Shown one piece after another: positions 14,688 through 39,748 of a stretch of DNA of 64,000 nt. A program made the translations under genes and the position numbers. The DNA lies in assembly GCA_043820105.1 (NCBI GenBank), contig JBDREC010000039.1:1-64000 (forward strand). The letters run 5' to 3'. Source of the DNA: Pseudomonadota bacterium (GTDB lineage Bacteria > Bdellovibrionota_F > JAHFAK01 > JBDREC01). How positions within the stretch are numbered: the first letter of the stretch is position 1; every line of letters begins with the position of its first letter. Below the pieces are notes generated by a model. The model ran no database searches, was not told the DNA's origin, and saw only the letters and a list, made by a program, of their open reading frames with translations.

Positions 14688-15638
14688 TCATATTAGACTC
14701 TTGTTCCCTTGTTCCCCTGCGCTCTTGTTCTCATTATTCAAAAGATACAAACACGCCATCCTAACAGCAATCCCATTTGTAACCTGATCCAGAATAACTG
14801 AGTTTTTAGAATCCGCAACATCTTCTGATATTTCAACGCCCCTGTTAATAGGACCCGGGTGCATAATTACAATATCTTTTTTTGCCTTTTCAAGTTTTTG
14901 AGAATTAATCCCAAAATAGTTTGCATATTCTCTTAAAGAAGGAAATAAAACTTCTCCAAGTCTTTCCATCTGAATTCTTAAAAGCATTATTACATCAAGC
15001 TTGCCTATTATCTCATCAATATTATAACAAACCTTAACTCCAAGTTTTTCTACCTCACAAGGGATCATGGTTGGAGGACCTACTAAAGTAACATTAGCTC
15101 CCATAGTTGTTAATCCATAAATGTTGGATCTTGCTACCCTACTATTTGCTATGTCTCCAACTATGGCTATATTAATCCCTTCAATTTTTCCCAGTTTTTC
15201 TTCAATAGTAAGCATATCCAGAAGTGCTTGCGTTGGGTGTTCGTGCGCTCCATCTCCTGCATTTAAGACTGACGCGTATGTATACTTGGCAATGAAGTCA
15301 GCAGAACCAACAGAAGAATGTCGAATTATAAAAAAATCAGGATTCATTGCTTCCATTGTTTTTAATGTGTCATAAAGTGATTCACCTTTAGTTGTAGAAG
15401 ATGAGGACATAGCTAAATTAATAACATCAGCAGATAAACGCTTTGCAGCTAAATCAAAAGAAGATCTTGTTCTGGTAGAAGGTTCAAAAAATAAATTAAC
15501 AACTGTCTTTCCTCGCAAAGCAGGAACCTTTTTAATCTGCCGAGTCCCAATTTCCTTCATTGATTTGGCAGTATCAAGAATTTCACGTATTTCTTCTTTT
15601 GAAACATACTGAAGGCCAGTTAGGTCTTTTCTGTTCAT
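14688..15638 (-). CDS. pyrB: Aspartate carbamoyltransferase catalytic subunit
   Basis: FFEPSTRTRSSF, NAGDGAHEHPTQALLD, MHPGPINRGVEI. Confidence 0.96.
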   Translation of the reverse strand: MNRKDLTGLQYVSKEEIREILDTAKSMKEIGTRQIKKVPALRGKTVVNLFFEPSTRTRSSFDLAAKRLSADVINLAMSSSSTTKGESLYDTLKTMEAMNPDFFIIRHSSVGSADFIAKYTYASVLNAGDGAHEHPTQALLDMLTIEEKLGKIEGINIAIVGDIANSRVARSNIYGLTTMGANVTLVGPPTMIPCEVEKLGVKVCYNIDEIIGKLDVIMLLRIQMERLGEVLFPSLREYANYFGINSQKLEKAKKDIVIMHPGPINRGVEISEDVADSKNSVILDQVTNGIAVRMACLYLLNNENKSAGEQGNKSLI

Positions 15639-32576: not shown

Positions 32577-35255
32577 GTGTTGGAACTTAAAAGAATAATA
32601 ACATTTCTCATCCCTGTCTTATGCTTTAGTTTTTTCTCAATACAGGCAAGCCAGGATTGCCTGAACCTTTTTTCTTTTACTATTCTAAACGCAGAAAGAT
32701 CAAATTTAGAGCAAAGGTCTTTAAATGCTACTATCCAGACAAGAATTACTGCTTCAGGTGCCTTTAATGATGCTCTTGGCAACAGTTTTTTTAGACCAAT
32801 TTTTGCAGATCATCCAGTTGAAATTGATTTGCTTCAAGGTGTGATTGTAGAAGTAAGGATATTTGAAAAGTCAGATGACATGCCTAATATTTTTAAAACA
32901 AAGCCTATAAAGAGAATTGAGTTCAAGCTTTTTATTAATGAAAATGGTCAATTGGCATCTTCTTTTGAGAATAATTATAATCGTGATTCAATGAAAAATG
33001 GGATTATTCTACGCAGGTTAATTGGCAAATCTTTGCACTTTGATTATCATAAATTTTGGGGAAGCTTTGAAGTTGCTTCAAATAGCGTGGTAGCGATAAG
33101 ACTTAAAGATGGTCAGGTTCTTAGAGCTGATGTTCTTGATGTTCAAAATATTAAAGATGCTTTAAGCATAGACATGAATAAAGAGAACTCACATATAATC
33201 ATGAGCAGAGATTATTCACTTGTCTATAACAGGCATGGAAGTTTAGTTAGGTCTGACATGTCCCCCCCTAATGCCGGTGAAATGGCAGGCTTTGATTTGC
33301 ATACTGCAATAGTCCGTCTTGGAAAGCATGGCGAGCTTTATTTGGGAGAAAGGAATATTGCAAGATTTAATAACTTTGAAATGCATATTGCAGCTGTTAA
33401 AATTTTGAATGGTTTTGTTGTTGAGGTAAACATATTAAAAGTTAAGAACACCTATGACGTTAAAAAACCAGGTTCAATTGATTCACAGCTGGCAGATAAT
33501 GGAAAAAGGGAATTTGCTTTAATTTACGATATTAATGGAAACTTAATTGAAACCCAAACAAAACACTCAACTAACAGCTTGGAAGGTCATGTGAAAATAG
33601 ACGGAAGAACCATTATTACAAGGCTAAGTGACAGTGGTCGCCTTTCTATTGCAGCTCTTGGATATAATCTGGAGTTTGCAAATCATAAGGCTGGGATCGT
33701 TGCTATTAAATGCCGGAATGGGGTCATTTGGGAGCTCGACTTTTTAGATGCCACACATATTTGGAACATTAAAGATTTAGATGATATTGAAAGACATATA
33801 AAAAAAGATGAAAATGGCCTTGAGATTGGAAGACAATTTTTCAGACTGGTTTGGGATAGAGATCAAAATCTGCTTGGATCTTTTTACACACATTCCGGAA
33901 GGATTACTCCACGCTATGGCAATAATGAGGGGCCCATTACCTTAGCTCCAGATATAAATGCCCAGGAGATCTTCACAAGAAAAGCTAAAAAATATTTAGC
34001 AGATGATGAAAGCGCTTCATCTCCTGCTATTTGTCCACCAAAGATGATAATTATGGATTCAATACCCATCAAAACGTCTGATGCTATAAGTGACAAAGAA
34101 TTATCAACCCTGAATGATATTACAATCAGGACCTTTCTTAAAGAAAATGGAATGCTGAACCTTGGGGGAGAGCATATCTTCCAGAGAAAGAACTTGAGCA
34201 AAAATCCAGTAGAAATCGATATTATTCAAGGTGAAATCATAGAAATTAGAATTTTTGAAATAGCAAGTGCATCTGACTCTGCCTTTTTATCCTCTCCAAT
34301 CGAAAAAGTAGAATTTTCACTTGCCTTTGATTTTGAGGGCAACTTTTTGAGAACTTTTGGATCAAGATTCTATGGTTTTAATAAAAGCTTTCAAGGAACC
34401 ATAATTACAAGATTAAAAAACAGAAGCAGTGAAATCGCAGGCAATAACCTGGGAACCTTTGAAGAAGCGTATGCTTCTAATTTAGTAGCAGCGAGATTTC
34501 AAAATGGAGTGCTTATAAGAACAGATGTTCTTGATTTAAGCAAAATCAAAGAAGCCCTTGATTTAAAGCCACAGGAGCAGGAAGCTCATATCTTGGATTC
34601 CAGAGAATACATTCTTAATTATAATACAAGGGGTGAATTAGTAGCTTCTTACACTCACCAATCATCAATAACAATGGCAAGGCTTGAAACCTTTGAATCA
34701 AATATTCTTGTATTAAGATTAAACGATGAAGGCTTAATCCGAATAGGCAAAAAAGATGTTTTGAAAAAAAGGTGTTTTGCAAATAGCCTGGCTGCTGTAT
34801 CAATTACAGATGGTGTTGTGACATTGGTAAGAATTTTGAATATTGAAAAGCCTTATGATTTAGATGACATAATAAAGCTTAACAGACATGTTGTAGAGAA
34901 TGGAAAAATTGAATTCTACCTGGTCTGGGATATAGCTGGAAGATTAATTGATTCTTTTCAAAGCCTTTATCCAGTTCCCCAAAGGCTTTGGTATATAAAT
35001 GGAGTTATAAGTGGAAATTTATTTGTGGATTCACATAATGGCTTTATCTTCAGGGGAGTTCGTTATTCTTTTGGAACAAAAGAAGATTATAGTGGATACC
35101 CTATTAGCAAAATACAGTTTTCAGAACCAAGAAGGCCAGGCCAAATAACAAGTTTTGTAATCTTTGATGAATCAAGCAAAGAAGAGGTGGTTGTCTGGAC
35201 AGATGATATAGTAAGAAAAGATTTATCGAGCATTGGCAATGGTATGATAAATTAA
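32577..35255 (+). CDS. Hypothetical exported protein built from diverged ~90-aa repeats
   Basis: Signal peptide; duplicated blocks PVEIDLLQGVIVEVRIFE / PVEIDIIQGEIIEIRIFE and recurring EFxLxxDxxGxLI. Confidence 0.7.
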   Translation: MLELKRIITFLIPVLCFSFFSIQASQDCLNLFSFTILNAERSNLEQRSLNATIQTRITASGAFNDALGNSFFRPIFADHPVEIDLLQGVIVEVRIFEKSDDMPNIFKTKPIKRIEFKLFINENGQLASSFENNYNRDSMKNGIILRRLIGKSLHFDYHKFWGSFEVASNSVVAIRLKDGQVLRADVLDVQNIKDALSIDMNKENSHIIMSRDYSLVYNRHGSLVRSDMSPPNAGEMAGFDLHTAIVRLGKHGELYLGERNIARFNNFEMHIAAVKILNGFVVEVNILKVKNTYDVKKPGSIDSQLADNGKREFALIYDINGNLIETQTKHSTNSLEGHVKIDGRTIITRLSDSGRLSIAALGYNLEFANHKAGIVAIKCRNGVIWELDFLDATHIWNIKDLDDIERHIKKDENGLEIGRQFFRLVWDRDQNLLGSFYTHSGRITPRYGNNEGPITLAPDINAQEIFTRKAKKYLADDESASSPAICPPKMIIMDSIPIKTSDAISDKELSTLNDITIRTFLKENGMLNLGGEHIFQRKNLSKNPVEIDIIQGEIIEIRIFEIASASDSAFLSSPIEKVEFSLAFDFEGNFLRTFGSRFYGFNKSFQGTIITRLKNRSSEIAGNNLGTFEEAYASNLVAARFQNGVLIRTDVLDLSKIKEALDLKPQEQEAHILDSREYILNYNTRGELVASYTHQSSITMARLETFESNILVLRLNDEGLIRIGKKDVLKKRCFANSLAAVSITDGVVTLVRILNIEKPYDLDDIIKLNRHVVENGKIEFYLVWDIAGRLIDSFQSLYPVPQRLWYINGVISGNLFVDSHNGFIFRGVRYSFGTKEDYSGYPISKIQFSEPRRPGQITSFVIFDESSKEEVVVWTDDIVRKDLSSIGNGMIN

Positions 35256-35278
35256 AGACACCTTGGGAATTCTCTGAA

Positions 35279-35330
35279 AAAAAACACAAGACGAACCTTT
35301 AGGGAAAAAACACAAGACGAACCTTTAGGG
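35279..35330 (+). repeat. Perfect 26-bp tandem duplication of a REP-like motif upstream of the RAYT
   Basis: AAAAAACACAAGACGAACCTTTAGGG x2. Confidence 0.85.
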
Positions 35331-35452
35331 AAATGTCTAATTTCCAGAATTCATAAGAAAAAATAAACCTTCTAATTAAAGTCGATATCTGTTTTGTCTC
35401 TAATTGTCGCAAATAATTAGTTTTTTGGGTTTGTGTATGTTTCAAGCAATAA

Positions 35453-35468
35453 TGGCAGCATTTTTGCA
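35453..35468 (+). promoter_or_regulatory. sigma54 promoter upstream of the RAYT
   Basis: TGGCAGCATTTTTGCA (GG-N10-GC). Confidence 0.55.
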
Positions 35469-35529
35469 TATTGTTTTTCATTATTCATTAAAATGTTAAA
35501 AACATAAAAGTAACATAAGGAAAAACCCA

Positions 35530-36285
35530 ATGCCGTATCTGCCAAGAAGAACAATAACAAAGGAAAGCAATATATTTCATATTACCTGGCAGTTTCATAA
35601 CAAAGATTGGTTTTTCAGTGAATATTGGGCCAAGCATGTTTACTATAGTTTAATGCTAACTTGCTCGGCACTATTTAATATTAATGTTTATTGTTACGCA
35701 TTTATGGATTCGCATGCACATTTTATTTTTCAATCGGAAGTACCTGAATTTATTTCAAAATTATTTCATAAAATTCATACAATATTTGCAATTGCATTTA
35801 ATAAAAGAAATGGCCGACGGGGACAAGTTTTTATGGATCGATTCAAGACAATTCCTATAAAGAGTGAAAAAGAATTACTTAGAGTGATGGCTTATATCGA
35901 TCTTAACCAAAAAAGAGCAGGCAAGGTAAAACATCCAAGACAAAACAAGTTTTCATCTTATAAGCATTATGCCTTGGGAATAAAAGATGAGTTAATAACG
36001 GAAGTAAAGGCTTATCTCGATATGGGGATTAATAAAAGCTTAAGGCAAAGAACATATAGAAAATTAATAGAATCAAAACTAAAAACAGATTGGGAAAAAA
36101 AGATGCAATATTCATCTGAATGGGTAATTGGAGATATTTCATGGGTAGATACAGTAAGCAGAAAACTTAGGGCCATAATGAGGGACAAAAGGGATAAATG
36201 GAAGAAAGGATATAAAGAAAGATTTGGAATGGATCCAAGTGAAATGCATAAATTAATGAGACAACTTTCAATAATTGCCAAATAA
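35530..36285 (+). mobile_element. REP-associated tyrosine transposase (RAYT, Y1_Tnp HUH family)
   Basis: FHITWQ, YAFMDSHAHF (HUH), RRGQVFMDRFK, YIDLN (catalytic Tyr), RAG..FSSYKHY. Confidence 0.85.
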
Positions 36286-36492
36286 AATGTTAAGATTAAG
36301 CAAGTCAAAGAAAGGGATTATCTAAAATATCAATATTATATAATGATTTTTTAAAATAGACTGAATTAAAATAAGAATCCAAAATCCTGATTTTCAAAAA
36401 GCTTCAAATCTAAAATTAGTCATATTATTTGGGTCTTTAGGTCAAAAAGCTCATTTTTTTCATATAGCGTAGTAAATTGTTTAAAGAAAAAT

Positions 36493-36516
36493 AAAAGGGT
36501 CGTCTTATGATTTTTT
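36493..36516 (-). repeat. Inverted copy of the CAAGACGA motif downstream of the RAYT
   Basis: Reverse complement AAAAAATCATAAGACGACCCTTTT. Confidence 0.6.
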
Positions 36517-36578
36517 ATCTTTTTATTAACAACAGGTTAGTCATGATTCCAATTCTGCCTATTCCCATCTGTTTCTGT

Positions 36579-36603
36579 CTGTTTCCATGGAGTCTGTGAT
36601 AAA
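36579..36603 (+). repeat. Repeat A, copy 1 (upstream of the pilin)
   Basis: CTGTTTCCATGGAGTCTGTGATAAA; 23/25 identical to 38947-38971. Confidence 0.85.
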
Positions 36604-36661
36604 AACGTGATAAAAAATGATATGATAAATGTTGTGATTCTTAGATAGTTAATTATTGCTA

Positions 36662-36677
36662 TTTTTTTTTTTTTTTT
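36662..36677. repeat. Poly-T16 tract upstream of the pilin
   Basis: 16 consecutive T between TTGCTA (36656-36661) and AATAAT (36680-36685). Confidence 0.8.
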
Positions 36678-36743
36678 GAAATAATTGTCAGTCTGTATGT
36701 GGGTAGGCAGCAATGTTTAATTTTTAAAAAAGAGGAGACCACT

Positions 36744-37259
36744 ATGAAAAAGAAAGGTTTTACACTAGTCGAACTAATGATCGTTGTTGCGATCATCGGA
36801 ATCTTGGCAGCAATTGCTATTCCAAGTTTTATGGCTTATATTAAGAAGTCCAAGAAATCGGAATTAAATGTAATGGTAAATGGAATTTTTGCAGCAGAGA
36901 CTGACTATACTATCGATAATGCAAAATTTCATGCTTGTTACCCATCTGTTCCAACTGATGATGTGAATGTTCTTAGTGGAAATAAACTGTCTGGATCTCA
37001 AGCAGCATTTGCCAATGATACAAATGGTTTTAAAATTATAGGCTATGTTCCAGATCAGGATACATATACAGGAGCACAGGTAGACTGCACCAATGGGACC
37101 AACAATCCAACAATGAAGTGTACTATACTTTTATTTCAGGACTTGGATGATGATGGTAATAGAGGTGATTATCTACAAGTAATTAGAAGAGCAAAATCAG
37201 AGACAGGAAATACTTGGAAATTAGGAAGTCTAACAGAAAATCCGAGCTTTATTGATTAA
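36744..37259 (+). CDS. Type IV pilin (class III signal peptide)
   Basis: [43 protein letters not shown] motif in the globular part. Confidence 0.92.
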
Positions 37260-37299
37260 TAAAAGATGGCGTCCAAGAAACTAGCAAAAATGTGTCACC
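37257..37299 (+). repeat. Repeat B, copy 1 (begins at the pilin stop codon)
   Basis: TAATAAAAGATGGCGTCCAAGAAACTAGCAAAAATGTGTCACC; 42/43 identical to 38972-39014. Confidence 0.9.
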
Positions 37300-37398
37300 T
37301 GCTTTTCATAGACACGTCACTTACTGTTTTCATGAAGTATTGTCTTGGGTTTTTAGTTTGAGTAGAAAAGAAAAAATATAGCACGGAGGTAAATAGAA

Positions 37399-37614
37399 TT
37401 ATAAAAGATCCTTGTATTTACACTTAAAAGCATTAGCTAGCTTAAACAAAACTCTTAGGGTTGTATTTGTTTTCCCTGTTTCAATTTTTTGATAATGCTT
37501 ATAGCTAATGCCATAGTCTTCCATATCTTCCTGGGTCAATCCTGCCTTTAGCCTCAATTTCTTAATATTTTTACCTGCTTGTATTGGGAACTTATCTTCT
37601 TTTTTCATTTGCAC
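37399..37614 (-). CDS. XRE-family helix-turn-helix regulator
   Basis: GKNIKKLRLKAGLTQEDM, YQKIETGKTNTTLRVLFKLANAF. Confidence 0.85.
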   Translation of the reverse strand: MQMKKEDKFPIQAGKNIKKLRLKAGLTQEDMEDYGISYKHYQKIETGKTNTTLRVLFKLANAFKCKYKDLL

Positions 37615-37771
37615 CTCATAAATCTTACAATTATAGCTACACTCCGGGAGGTAGTATTTTAAAATAATGCAATAAAATCTACTTGCAAAAGCAAATAAAA
37701 AGAGCTATGATTGCATTTAGTGCCACAAGTGCAAATAAGCTGGTTTTTATTTGCAGGAAATGAGGAATATT

Positions 37772-38905
37772 ATGGATATAAAAGAGTTTATTTCTGGAAA
37801 TTATAGGAATCAATATAAATATAAAAGTTTTCTGCCGCAATATGTTGATATTAGATGGGAAATGAGTGACAGTAATTTGCTTCATTTGCTCAGTGAAGCA
37901 GATATTAAACTTGGGGAATTAAATGCATTCTCTCAATTAATTCCAGATATTGATTATTTTATTAAAATGCATGTGCATAAAGAGGCCACAACCTCAAGCT
38001 CAATAGAAGGAACTGAAACCAATATTAAGGATGCATTACAAAAAAAGGAATTTATTGATCCTGAAAAGAGAGATGACTGGTTAGAAGTTCAAAATTATAT
38101 TAAAGCAATGAATGGAGCAATCATTCAATTAGAGGAATTGCCCCTTTCAAATCGTCTATTAAAGAATACTCACAAAACACTTTTACAGGGTGCAAGAGGC
38201 AAAAACAAAATGCCAGGTGAATTTCGTAATAGTCAAAACTGGATAGGAGGGGCTACCTTAAGTGATGCAGTTTTTATTCCTCCCCATCAAGATGATATAG
38301 CAATACTAATGTCAGACTTTGAAAAATTTATAAATAATGAAAATTATCCTATTCCACATCTAATTAGAATTGGTATTGCGCATTATCAATTTGAAACAAT
38401 ACATCCATTTTTAGATGGAAATGGAAGAATTGGACGTTTATTAATTACCCTATACTTGGTTAGCAAGGGGCTGCTTTTGCGACCAACGCTTTATTTGTCG
38501 GAATTTTTTGAAAAGAATAAAAATCTTTATTATGATAATCTTAATAGAGTTAGAACTCACAATGAATTGACACAGTGGTTGAAATATTTTTTGGTTGGAA
38601 TAAAACAGACAGCTCAAAACTCTATTGAAACATTTCAATTGATAATTAAACTAAGAGAAAAAGTTGAAAATCATGATATTTTATTGCTTGGAAAAAAATC
38701 AAAATTAGCTCAAAAATTTGTTCATTATCTGTATGGAAAACCAATTGTTGATAGCAAAGAAATATCAAAAGAATTTTCCATTAACCCCTCAACTACTTCA
38801 CGCTTGATTGAAGATTTTATTAGATTAGGGATTCTAAAGGAAATTACTGGAAATAAAAGAAATAGAATATTTATTTTTGAAGAGTATATTAAGTTGTTTG
38901 AATAG
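37772..38905 (+). CDS. Fic-family protein with N-terminal inhibitory motif and C-terminal HTH
   Basis: HPFLDGNGRIGR catalytic motif; TSSSIEGT matches (S/T)xxxEG; ATG 37772 after GAGG. Confidence 0.92.
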   Translation: MDIKEFISGNYRNQYKYKSFLPQYVDIRWEMSDSNLLHLLSEADIKLGELNAFSQLIPDIDYFIKMHVHKEATTSSSIEGTETNIKDALQKKEFIDPEKRDDWLEVQNYIKAMNGAIIQLEELPLSNRLLKNTHKTLLQGARGKNKMPGEFRNSQNWIGGATLSDAVFIPPHQDDIAILMSDFEKFINNENYPIPHLIRIGIAHYQFETIHPFLDGNGRIGRLLITLYLVSKGLLLRPTLYLSEFFEKNKNLYYDNLNRVRTHNELTQWLKYFLVGIKQTAQNSIETFQLIIKLREKVENHDILLLGKKSKLAQKFVHYLYGKPIVDSKEISKEFSINPSTTSRLIEDFIRLGILKEITGNKRNRIFIFEEYIKLFE

Positions 38906-38946
38906 AAATGTCATAAGGCGCCACGTCACTTGCGGTTTTTTCCCAC

Positions 38947-39014
38947 CTGTTTCCATTGAGTCTGTTATAAATAATAAAACATGGCGTCCAAGAAACTAGC
39001 AAAAATGTGTCACC
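38947..39014 (+). repeat. Repeat A copy 2 abutting repeat B copy 2 (empty-site-like)
   Basis: CTGTTTCCATTGAGTCTGTTATAAA|TAATAAAACATGGCGTCCAAGAAACTAGCAAAAATGTGTCACC. Confidence 0.88.
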
Positions 39015-39063
39015 CACTTTTTGAGAAGAGGTGGTAGTTAGGGTGAATATGGTAAAGGAAAAT

Positions 39064-39093
39064 AAAAAAGCCAAGCAATTTTAGCTTGGCTTT
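39064..39093 (-). terminator. Intrinsic terminator downstream of tRNA-Leu
   Basis: AAAGCCAAGC-N7-GCTTGGCTTT stem followed by a T-run on the minus strand. Confidence 0.7.
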
Positions 39094-39212
39094 AAATCTT
39101 TGTTTGAGTGTGAGTTTGAGTATTGGGGGATAAAATTTTTTTATCCATCTTTTTTTCAAACCCATTACCCAAACACAATACTGTAAAATTTTTGCGAGAG
39201 CAAAAAATTTTA

Positions 39213-39294
39213 TGCCGAGAGTGAGACTCGAACTCACACGGGTCTCCCCACACGGCCCTCAACCGTGCGCGTCTACCAATTCCACCATCCCGGC
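39213..39294 (-). tRNA. tRNA-Leu (GAG)
   Basis: GCCGGGATGGTGGAATTGGTAGACGCGCACGGTTGAGGGCCGTG...GAGTTCGAGTCTCACTCTCGGCA; anticodon GAG, long variable arm, CCA not encoded; follows secG. Confidence 0.95.
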
Positions 39295-39340
39295 TTATTA
39301 AAACTAGTTCTAGGTCTAGAGCTAGCGCTAGTTCAAATTC

Positions 39341-39748
39341 TTACTGACCTTCGTCTTCTGTTTCAGCTTCTTCAATAGGTGACTCAACTACAGGTTCTGT
39401 GCTTGCTTCTTGGCTTGCTTTTGCTTCTTCTGGTTCTGCGGCTGCTTTCATGCTTCCTTCAGGAGGAACATTGTCAGCAGGGGCGGTTACGCTATCAAGT
39501 AAGGAAGGTTCTACTTCTGATGATGAAATGTGAGCTAGAGTAATCGAAGTAATCATAAAAACGAGAGCTGCGCTAGCTGTAATTTTTGTCATTATGCCAA
39601 CACCACCACTTGTTCCAAACAAAGTTTGACTTGAACCGCCACCAAAGGCAGCCCCAATATCAGAACCCTTGCCTGATTGTAGCAAAACTATTAATATTAA
39701 ACAAAAAGCAACAAATACATGCAATATTGTAATTAGGGTCGCTATCAT
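39341..39748 (-). CDS. secG: Preprotein translocase subunit SecG
   Basis: LIVLLQSGKGSDIGAAFGGGSSQTLFG; tpiA-secG-tRNA-Leu synteny. Confidence 0.93.
   Translation of the reverse strand: MIATLITILHVFVAFCLILIVLLQSGKGSDIGAAFGGGSSQTLFGTSGGVGIMTKITASAALVFMITSITLAHISSSEVEPSLLDSVTAPADNVPPEGSMKAAAEPEEAKASQEASTEPVVESPIEEAETEDEGQ

Follow-up and report, generated by a model that had tools for sequence, protein, structure and literature searches.

Can a type IV pilin gene be inserted, excised and exchanged as a cassette bounded by two short repeats, or is such an arrangement better understood as the trace of a more ordinary rearrangement? The question is raised by a 64,000-nucleotide (nt) stretch of DNA, referred to here as the window, from a Pseudomonadota bacterium (GenBank assembly GCA_043820105.1, contig JBDREC010000039.1), in which a pilin gene is flanked by a repeat A and a repeat B, and the same two repeats recur downstream with no pilin between them. 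The window is contig C39 of a 3.81-Mb metagenome assembly of 113 contigs (32% G+C, 92.9% complete), the other contigs of which are named likewise. A reading of the bare sequence (the sequence-only reading) had proposed that the two sites may be the filled and empty members of a cassette array, at which a neighbouring RAYT transposase or another recombinase exchanges pilin genes, leading to pilus variation. The results obtained here point in another direction. Repeats A and B, together with a third repeat, C, which had been overlooked, are non-coding flank sequences, not the ends of a mobile pilin cassette, and the reading that we lean towards is that they are a scar, left when a pilin locus rich in repeats and prone to recombination was locally rearranged, once or a few times. 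The A/B pair would then be an ordinary rearrangement scar, which should not be taken for a new way of varying the pilus, and the part worth a further look is the pilin family as a whole.

Repeats A, B and C at the pilin locus

The core copies of A (36579-36603 and 38947-38971) are identical at 23 of 25 positions, and those of B (37257-37299 and 38972-39014) at 42 of 43, or at 47 of 50 when extended to 37306 and 39021; the copies of C (37313-37330 and 38922-38939) agree at 16 of 18. At the right site, 1.7 kb downstream of the left one, the last base of A (38971) directly abuts the first base of B (38972), and the segment absent from between them (36604-37256) is 653 nt long, whereas at the left site the pilin stop codon, TAA (37257-37259), provides the first three bases of B. 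Up to this point, the sequence-only reading is confirmed throughout. On the left, the elements follow one another as A-pilin-B-C, and on the right as C-A-B; these composite flanks enclose a 1.6-kb XRE-Fic module beside a tRNA-Leu gene. The matches are beyond chance, given E values against the whole assembly of about 5e-16 to 1e-15 for the B pair and 0.004-0.007 for the A pair, and a local alignment score of 50 for the A region, for which the maximum among 300 shuffles was 39. The features of the locus, with amino acids abbreviated as aa, are as follows.

32577-35255: open reading frame of 892 aa, with no family match
35279-35330, plus strand: left inverted repeat of the RAYT-like unit, consisting of two perfect tandem 26-mers
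35530-36285, plus strand: RAYT-like transposase gene of the Y1/HUH type, 251 aa, about 100 of them in a C-terminal extension (Pfam, NCBIfam)
36494-36516, plus strand: right inverted repeat of the RAYT-like unit, ending 62 nt before repeat A
36563-36603, plus strand: repeat A, left copy (core 36579-36603)
36656-36685, plus strand: sigma-70-like promoter match, TTGCTA-18-AATAAT (consensus match only)
36744-37259, plus strand: type IV major-pilin gene, 171 aa (Pfam N_methyl)
37257-37306, plus strand: repeat B, left copy, opening with the pilin stop codon
37313-37330, plus strand: repeat C, left copy
37399-37614, minus strand: XRE-type helix-turn-helix gene, 71 aa (Pfam HTH_3, 49 bits)
37751-38905, plus strand: Fic-domain gene, 384 aa when read from its first start codon (Pfam Fic_N 81 bits, Fic 66 bits)
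38922-38939, plus strand: repeat C, right copy
38940-38971, plus strand: repeat A, right copy (core 38947-38971)
38972-39021, plus strand: repeat B, right copy, abutting A
39067-39093, minus strand: terminator-like hairpin with a T-run, behind tRNA-Leu
39213-39294, minus strand: tRNA-Leu (anticodon GAG)

The pilin had been described as precisely bounded, a description that is too sharp for these borders, where the A|B junction (38971/38972) sits within AT-rich sequence and partial A- and B-like matches occur inside the segment. Beyond a 4-nt gap, the left A is followed by 12 nt that match the opening 12 nt of B at 10 positions, and a weak alignment joins the final 13 nt of the pilin gene to the 3' half of A. 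Both borders carry short AT-rich direct repeats, which represent a possible route for deletion, and they are compatible with deletion between short direct repeats or with insertion accompanied by a short target duplication. To its left, A extends into TTCCCAyCTGTTTC, common to both copies, and the left copy carries a 10-nt tandem duplication. A longer homology upstream of A was considered and rejected, the extra alignment columns being of about random identity.

A cassette array is not what the rest of the genome displays. A and C exist at this locus only: both copies of A in the 3.81-Mb assembly are those described above, with only weak look-alikes near two other pilin genes, and B is nowhere else found beside A. 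Nor is the stretch from A to B a repeated unit. DNA homology between this pilin and its paralogs sets in at 36714-36744, 0-30 nt ahead of the ATG, and is over by 37200, still within the gene, so that it stops within the A..B interval, whereas a mobile A..B unit would be common to the paralogs. The 458 nt upstream of the pilin (36286-36743) are unique in the genome, and the open reading frames listed within the 653-nt segment are the pilin and, across the left end of the segment, a minus-strand frame of 58 codons.

The Y1/HUH gene noticed upstream does lie where it had been placed, ending 293 nt before A, although several results fail to support the action on A|B ascribed to it or to another recombinase. 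Y1 transposases of the RAYT kind need hairpin-folding substrates. Folding of the left A, the left B-C and the right C-A-B as single-stranded DNA, on both strands, gave no hairpin (z between -1.19 and +2.20 relative to 200 shuffles, with 0 kcal/mol for the left A), and the 653-nt segment has no left-end hairpin of the IS200/IS605 kind. The RAYT-like gene has inverted repeats of its own, unrelated to A and B, with arms at 35278-35300 and 35305-35326 that are 86-87% complementary to 36494-36516. A and B, for their part, are direct repeats, both located downstream of the RAYT-like gene and not flanking it in inverted orientation. No integron integrase reached the cut-off in the assembly (TIGR02249, best match 84 bits, cut-off 265).

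Repeat B elsewhere in the genome

Repeat B, about 50 nt long, is dispersed: the whole assembly has 11 copies at no more than 3 mismatches from the consensus pattern, against 0 in the reversed control. The same 11 copies were recovered with nhmmer at E <= 1e-11, together with two relics: one, degenerate, 107 nt after B on C1, and another, with an internal deletion, 158 nt after a pilin on C103. The copies are scattered across 8 contigs, not gathered in one array, and most are found just 3' of unrelated, non-pilin genes. Eight of the 11 lie within 210 nt after an open reading frame on the same strand, the frames in question being two pilins, the Fic gene and genes for proteins of 1458, 1732 (with a PP2C domain), 367, 720 and 259 aa. 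The two copies in the window carry variants absent from all other copies (GTGTCACC where others have GCCACC), and these private shared variants make them each other's closest kin, as a local duplication predicts.

B is conserved as a sequence, with an 8-nt variable centre; its stem is of 6 bp with a 19-nt loop (-3 kcal/mol), and no covariation was found. It has no Rfam match, its pattern was found in none of three other genomes of the phylum (0/3), and there were 0 matches in the metagenome contigs and 0 in the species-genome collection; the family is lineage-specific and intergenic. B resembles the attC sites of integron cassettes in being a short repeat right behind the stop codons of unrelated genes, with toxin-antitoxin-like neighbours, but it differs from them in lacking an extended imperfect inverted repeat and in being spread over contigs with no single array. 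Two other roles were considered. B as a sigma-54 promoter on the reverse strand was rejected: in the copies, the distance from GG to GC falls one base below what such a promoter requires and the GC varies, and of 208 strict sigma-54 promoter-pattern matches genome-wide, none is found within 600 nt of a B copy. B as an upstream activator site is not general, as sigma-54-like promoters about 70 nt after B are present only on C63 and C29, which are paralogous.

Some of the B loci deserve description. Those at C29:40402-41708 and C63:4535-4800 are the paralogous pair: on C63, B comes directly after the stop codon of the PP2C-domain gene, and on C29 an opposite-strand DUF4143 AAA-ATPase gene sits exactly between the stop codon and B. 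The 296-nt segment between two B copies on C80 contains a terminator-like hairpin and a 32-codon open reading frame with a good ribosome-binding site, and genes for a sigma-54 activator and a histidine kinase are found nearby.

Possible history of the locus

Two routes could have produced the scar. By the first, the flanks of the pilin would have been duplicated and the gene then lost from the second copy, when the short direct repeats, AT-rich and located where the segment borders on A and B, recombined or underwent slippage; by the second, the XRE-Fic segment would have arrived together with a duplication of flank sequence. The setting is the variable stretch between the self-contained RAYT-like unit and tRNA-Leu. 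At the one locus of the same order that was read (G002), tRNA-Leu is followed by a peroxiredoxin-like gene (named without a family search), a layout indicating that the region is not conserved. The alternative mentioned in the sequence-only reading itself, a local duplication followed by deletion, is close to the history favoured here, although the order of events in it would be a reconstruction. Exchange of pilins at this site may be absent today.

Several points weigh against a scar of this kind and lead to other explanations. Its history takes two or three events, the polarity of which is presumed. The 3' flank of the closest pilin paralog, on C97, holds a contiguous match to the end of C, to A and to the start of B (score 38, shuffle maximum 34), which hints that the abutting A|B might be ancestral and the pilin inserted, not deleted. 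The C-A-B unit would then have come first, in at least two copies around XRE-Fic, and the pilin, with a 140-nt leader, would have been inserted once at the left A|B by a route not involving the RAYT. Such an insertion would account for the A-like and B-start-like sequence standing in one piece in the C97 flank, and the likeness between the first 12 nt of the segment and the start of B (10/12) is like an imperfect target duplication, but the chance probability of that likeness is about 0.03 by a rough estimate for AT-rich sequence with offsets allowed. The segment has no terminal inverted repeats, hairpins or recombinase gene, no other pilin lies between an A and a B, and the leader is unique in the genome, making this one-off insertion unlikely.

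B itself provides further points of this sort, as it is found at four loci beside toxin-antitoxin-like or DUF4143 ATPase genes and, at C80:20682-21100, two direct copies enclose 296 nt. It could accordingly be asked whether small accessory segments attach or recombine at B, XRE-Fic having been integrated there with A and C inside the insert. This would fit the two direct B copies that enclose a 1.66-kb XRE-Fic segment in the window and the pair on C80 enclosing a hairpin and a 32-codon frame, as well as the presence of B beside HEPN/MNT, DUF6036 and DUF4143 genes on C79, C1 and C29 and the degenerate second B 107 nt after the first on C1. It seems quite improbable, however, given that the ATPase gene in the C29/C63 comparison lies between stop codon and B with no duplication of B, that no recombinase gene was found at any B locus examined, that the inverted repeat in B is only 6 bp long, that A upstream of the pilin is left unexplained and that B was not found outside this genome.

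Read data and relatives were examined as well. Parts of the locus were found as short contigs, at about 2x depth, in three of four groundwater runs from two studies, and the run contigs cover neither 36396-36669 (left A) nor 38862-39135 (right site); no close relative was found in the collections searched, in which the phylum is represented by four species genomes, this one included. An assembly artefact, in which the assembler would have joined or duplicated sequence at a 34-nt exact stretch common to the B copies, making the right A|B unreal, might be expected in a 113-contig metagenome assembly in which many contigs break at pilins, with no independent contig over the left A or the right site. 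It is nevertheless extremely unlikely: the copies differ by point changes (2/25 in A, 3/50 in B, 2/18 in C) of a kind that collapse or chimera would not produce, and a 256-nt contig from an independent run is identical to 37273-37528, which supports the B-C-xre joint. The start of this contig falls roughly at the point where k-mers diverge from the part common to the B copies, which would be expected with both B contexts present in that run. Only two joints were listed, both from run X4, with short sides (21 and 31 nt) and 88% likeness, and they were treated as cross-matches.

The last points against the scar are statistical. RAYT-like loci lie within 1 kb of a pilin in three of 13 cases (P about 0.0009, with a random mean of 0.22), three of 12 B copies have a pilin within 300 nt (P 0.00005; the full copies and the C103 relic were counted and the C1 relic excluded), and three of the nine longest homopolymers in the genome (A/T >= 13 or G/C >= 9) lie within 500 nt of a pilin (P 0.00005). 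These figures come from random placement, and paralogous loci may be non-independent, which would overstate them. Such enrichment indicates that some non-random process acts at pilin loci.

The RAYT count is the part of the sequence-only reading that survives, at the level of the genome: RAYT-like genes do occur near pilins beyond chance. Insertion, excision or swapping of pilins at A|B by the neighbouring RAYT or a partner recombinase, with pilus variation as the outcome, is in keeping with that association and with the intact catalytic HUH and Tyr residues, with repeats resembling those of RAYT flanks in other pilin intergenic regions (C35, C7 and C19), and with an analogue in another multigene family that is described in a preprint (bioRxiv 10.1101/2020.03.09.984088). 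It is, nonetheless, very improbable, since A and B are non-palindromic and other repeats flank the RAYT in inverted orientation, A has two copies and is paired with B nowhere else, only three of the 26 pilins have B or a relic of it, no pilin was found nearby at any of 80 loci with RAYT homologs elsewhere, and the pilin paralogs have no long identical stretches (27 nt at most).

RAYT-like genes and related systems

The RAYT-like protein of the window scored 23.3 bits with Pfam Y1_Tnp (cut-off 23) and 46.3 bits with NCBIfam REP_Tyr_transpos (cut-off 80), the latter match covering model positions 3-146 of 146, and its residues H62, H64 and Y122 are invariant among four paralogs. The genome has 13 RAYT-like loci. 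The repeats bracketing the gene in the window form a small family, with 15 pattern matches against 4 in the reversed control. Of six other RAYT-like paralogs that were examined, four are likewise flanked by inverted repeats of their own (on C103, C29, C108 and, in a short, 9-nt form, C74). No prepilin motif was detected in flanks of up to 4 kb at 80 metagenome loci with RAYT homologs of 23-47% identity (0/80). Further RAYT-like genes are found just upstream of pilin genes at C103:119206-120523 and C108:40521-42373, the C108 copy being interrupted by a stop codon. The RAYT-flank repeat of C103 (GTGCCAGGCGA...) is also found after pilin genes on C19 and C7, and repeats resembling those of RAYT flanks occur in pilin intergenic regions on C35, C7 and C19. 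Many of the RAYT-like genes are at contig ends.

A REPIN consists of two inverted REPs served by a RAYT (PMC3337134). The unit in the window is similar to REP/REPIN-RAYT systems in that a Y1/HUH gene with intact HUH and Tyr is bracketed by short inverted repeats. It differs in that these repeats are not A or B, which are non-palindromic, and in the number of loci, 13 here as opposed to the average of 1.3-1.8 copies per replicon that is given for RAYT groups (PMC5581495). A and B do not resemble REPs: with two copies of A, and 11 plus two relics of B, the copy number is not that of highly repeated extragenic elements, and neither a hairpin palindrome nor inverted flanking of the RAYT was found.

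The nearest published parallel is the association between TnpA_REP and prochlorosin (procA) genes, which are found near each other more often than chance in marine picocyanobacteria (bioRxiv 10.1101/2020.03.09.984088). The system described there has, as here, a large gene family with a conserved N-terminus and a variable C-terminus, RAYT-type genes nearby beyond chance, and RAYTs with an extra C-terminal domain. In the picocyanobacteria, the two genes of many pairs are oriented towards one another, with a fixed distance and a conserved intergenic region between them, whereas the three RAYT-pilin pairs of this genome have differing distances, orientations and RAYT subfamilies (24-43% identity); the three pilin-adjacent RAYTs are too divergent to stem from one duplicated block. 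A post-submission note by the authors of the preprint states that causality is not established. By analogy, RAYT-type single-strand transposases may have had a part in both spreading and diversifying the 26-member pilin family of this candidate-phylum bacterium, as proposed for prochlorosin, with A|B as a footprint of insertion or excision, although we find this distinctly doubtful, to about the same degree as an attachment function for B. If it were true, the pilin loci would constitute a dedicated variation system, in which RAYT units and the B repeat act together with inverted arrays of heptamers and with homopolymers prone to slippage. Among the papers listed by a literature search joining RAYT and pilin (10 of 39), none concerned a link between the two.

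The pilin family

The gene at 36744-37259 has the predicted characteristics of a type IV major pilin, namely a class III signal peptide, an N-methylation motif and a hydrophobic N-terminal helix. It scored 37.5 bits with Pfam N_methyl (cut-off 21.2) and 37.4 bits with TIGR02532 (cut-off 16.3), and its best NCBIfam match was PilA of the Myxococcus type, over the N-terminus only. The assembly contains 26 full-length paralogs among 31 matches, all 26 with a start codon and a ribosome-binding site, whereas 1, 2 and 5 matches were counted in the remaining genomes of the phylum, three in number. Twenty paralogs have an identical N-terminal protein stretch and variable C-terminal parts, and the first 120 nt of these 20 are, on average, 85% identical as DNA; the longest exact match of the window pilin to any of its 19 core paralogs is 27 nt. 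The low DNA identity and this 27-nt maximum indicate that the pilins are old, separately evolving complete genes and not silent donors. In other species genomes, matches to pilin relatives span only the N-terminal 30-120 residues. B or a relic of it is found within 300 nt of three of the 26 pilins, and A near none but the pilin of the window. Examples of the family are found at C19:1311-3192 (three in tandem), C35:166-1376 and C4:35329-36605; many pilins are located at contig ends, and many contigs break at pilin genes.

Antigenic variation at Neisseria pilE/pilS involves a 3' Sma/Cla repeat and an upstream G-quadruplex (G4). The family described here has many pilin copies, a short repeat 3' of some of them and G-rich tracts upstream (G18, G19), but, unlike pilE/pilS, it has 26 of 26 copies full-length and ten with a sigma-54-like promoter of their own, and B follows only three of the 26, being mostly found after other genes. 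Copies of the kind that marks such a gene-conversion system, at once silent, 5'-truncated, promoterless and sharing long identical stretches with an expression locus, were not found among the 26 pilins; the combination of 85% N-terminal DNA identity with a longest exact stretch of 27 nt gives no sign of ongoing gene conversion.

Sigma-54-like promoters were found within 450 nt of 10 of the 26 pilins, the pilin of the window not being one of them. Four of the sigma-54-type pilins, on C19, C30, C108 and C88, have the palindrome GTGACA-N5-TGTCAC 150-320 nt upstream, which looks like a candidate site for an enhancer-binding protein and is absent from the window pilin. A literature search on multi-paralog sigma-54 pilin families returned nothing relevant. 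Directly upstream of the window pilin, TTGCTA-18-AATAAT is the only sigma-70-like match, and a T16 tract (36662-36677) forms its spacer, 67 nt before the pilin start. In Bordetella, the promoters of fimbrial genes can be phase-variable through a homopolymer that separates the -35 from the -10 element, and the T16 tract within the 18-nt spacer resembles this arrangement, at the level of a consensus match only. The three pilin-associated homopolymers lie 67-372 nt upstream of their genes and comprise, in addition to T16, the G18 and G19 tracts at C30:37081-37098 and C36:6299-6317, the G19 tract being at a contig end.

Upstream of many pilins (on C35, C19, C103, C79, C54, C84, C88 and others), the interval from the leader to the ribosome-binding site contains tandemly repeated heptamers in long inverted arrays, and the heptamer differs by locus. 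Tandem 8-nt repeats (GRGAACAA/GAGCGCAA) are found at 116 places in the genome, in 5' leaders and often before ribosome-binding sites (for example at C108:41151 and at 14714 and 50525 in the window); with four of the 116 within 1 kb of a pilin, they are not pilin-specific.

The phylum has only four species genomes in the collection, and this one carries 26 complete major-pilin genes, at whose loci its RAYT-like genes, its lineage-specific repeat and its rare long homopolymers are enriched. It is, thus, a candidate for the study of how a large family of surface-filament genes is built and switched.

Neighbouring genes

The Fic-domain gene of the XRE-Fic module gave 169 bits with the NCBIfam Fic adenylyltransferase model, under the cut-off of that model. 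An Rfam scan of 35000-39400 at E <= 1 returned the tRNA and two chance matches to microRNA models only. No repeat of tRNA-Leu sequence beyond a 12-nt match was found in the window, and no integrase among the open reading frames of the 14-52 kb interval examined, so that nothing in these stretches suggests a tRNA-end island. The tRNA-Leu gene is on the minus strand and its 3' end therefore faces the right A|B site, from which it is about 190-200 nt away, in agreement with the distance of about 200 bp first estimated. Beyond it are secG (Pfam), a tpiA-like open reading frame (labelled from the frame without a family search) and then mla-type genes. The three-pilin array on C19 likewise ends at a tRNA-Leu gene (CAG; C19:3545-3628, locus L034) on the opposite strand, in the same geometry as in the window.

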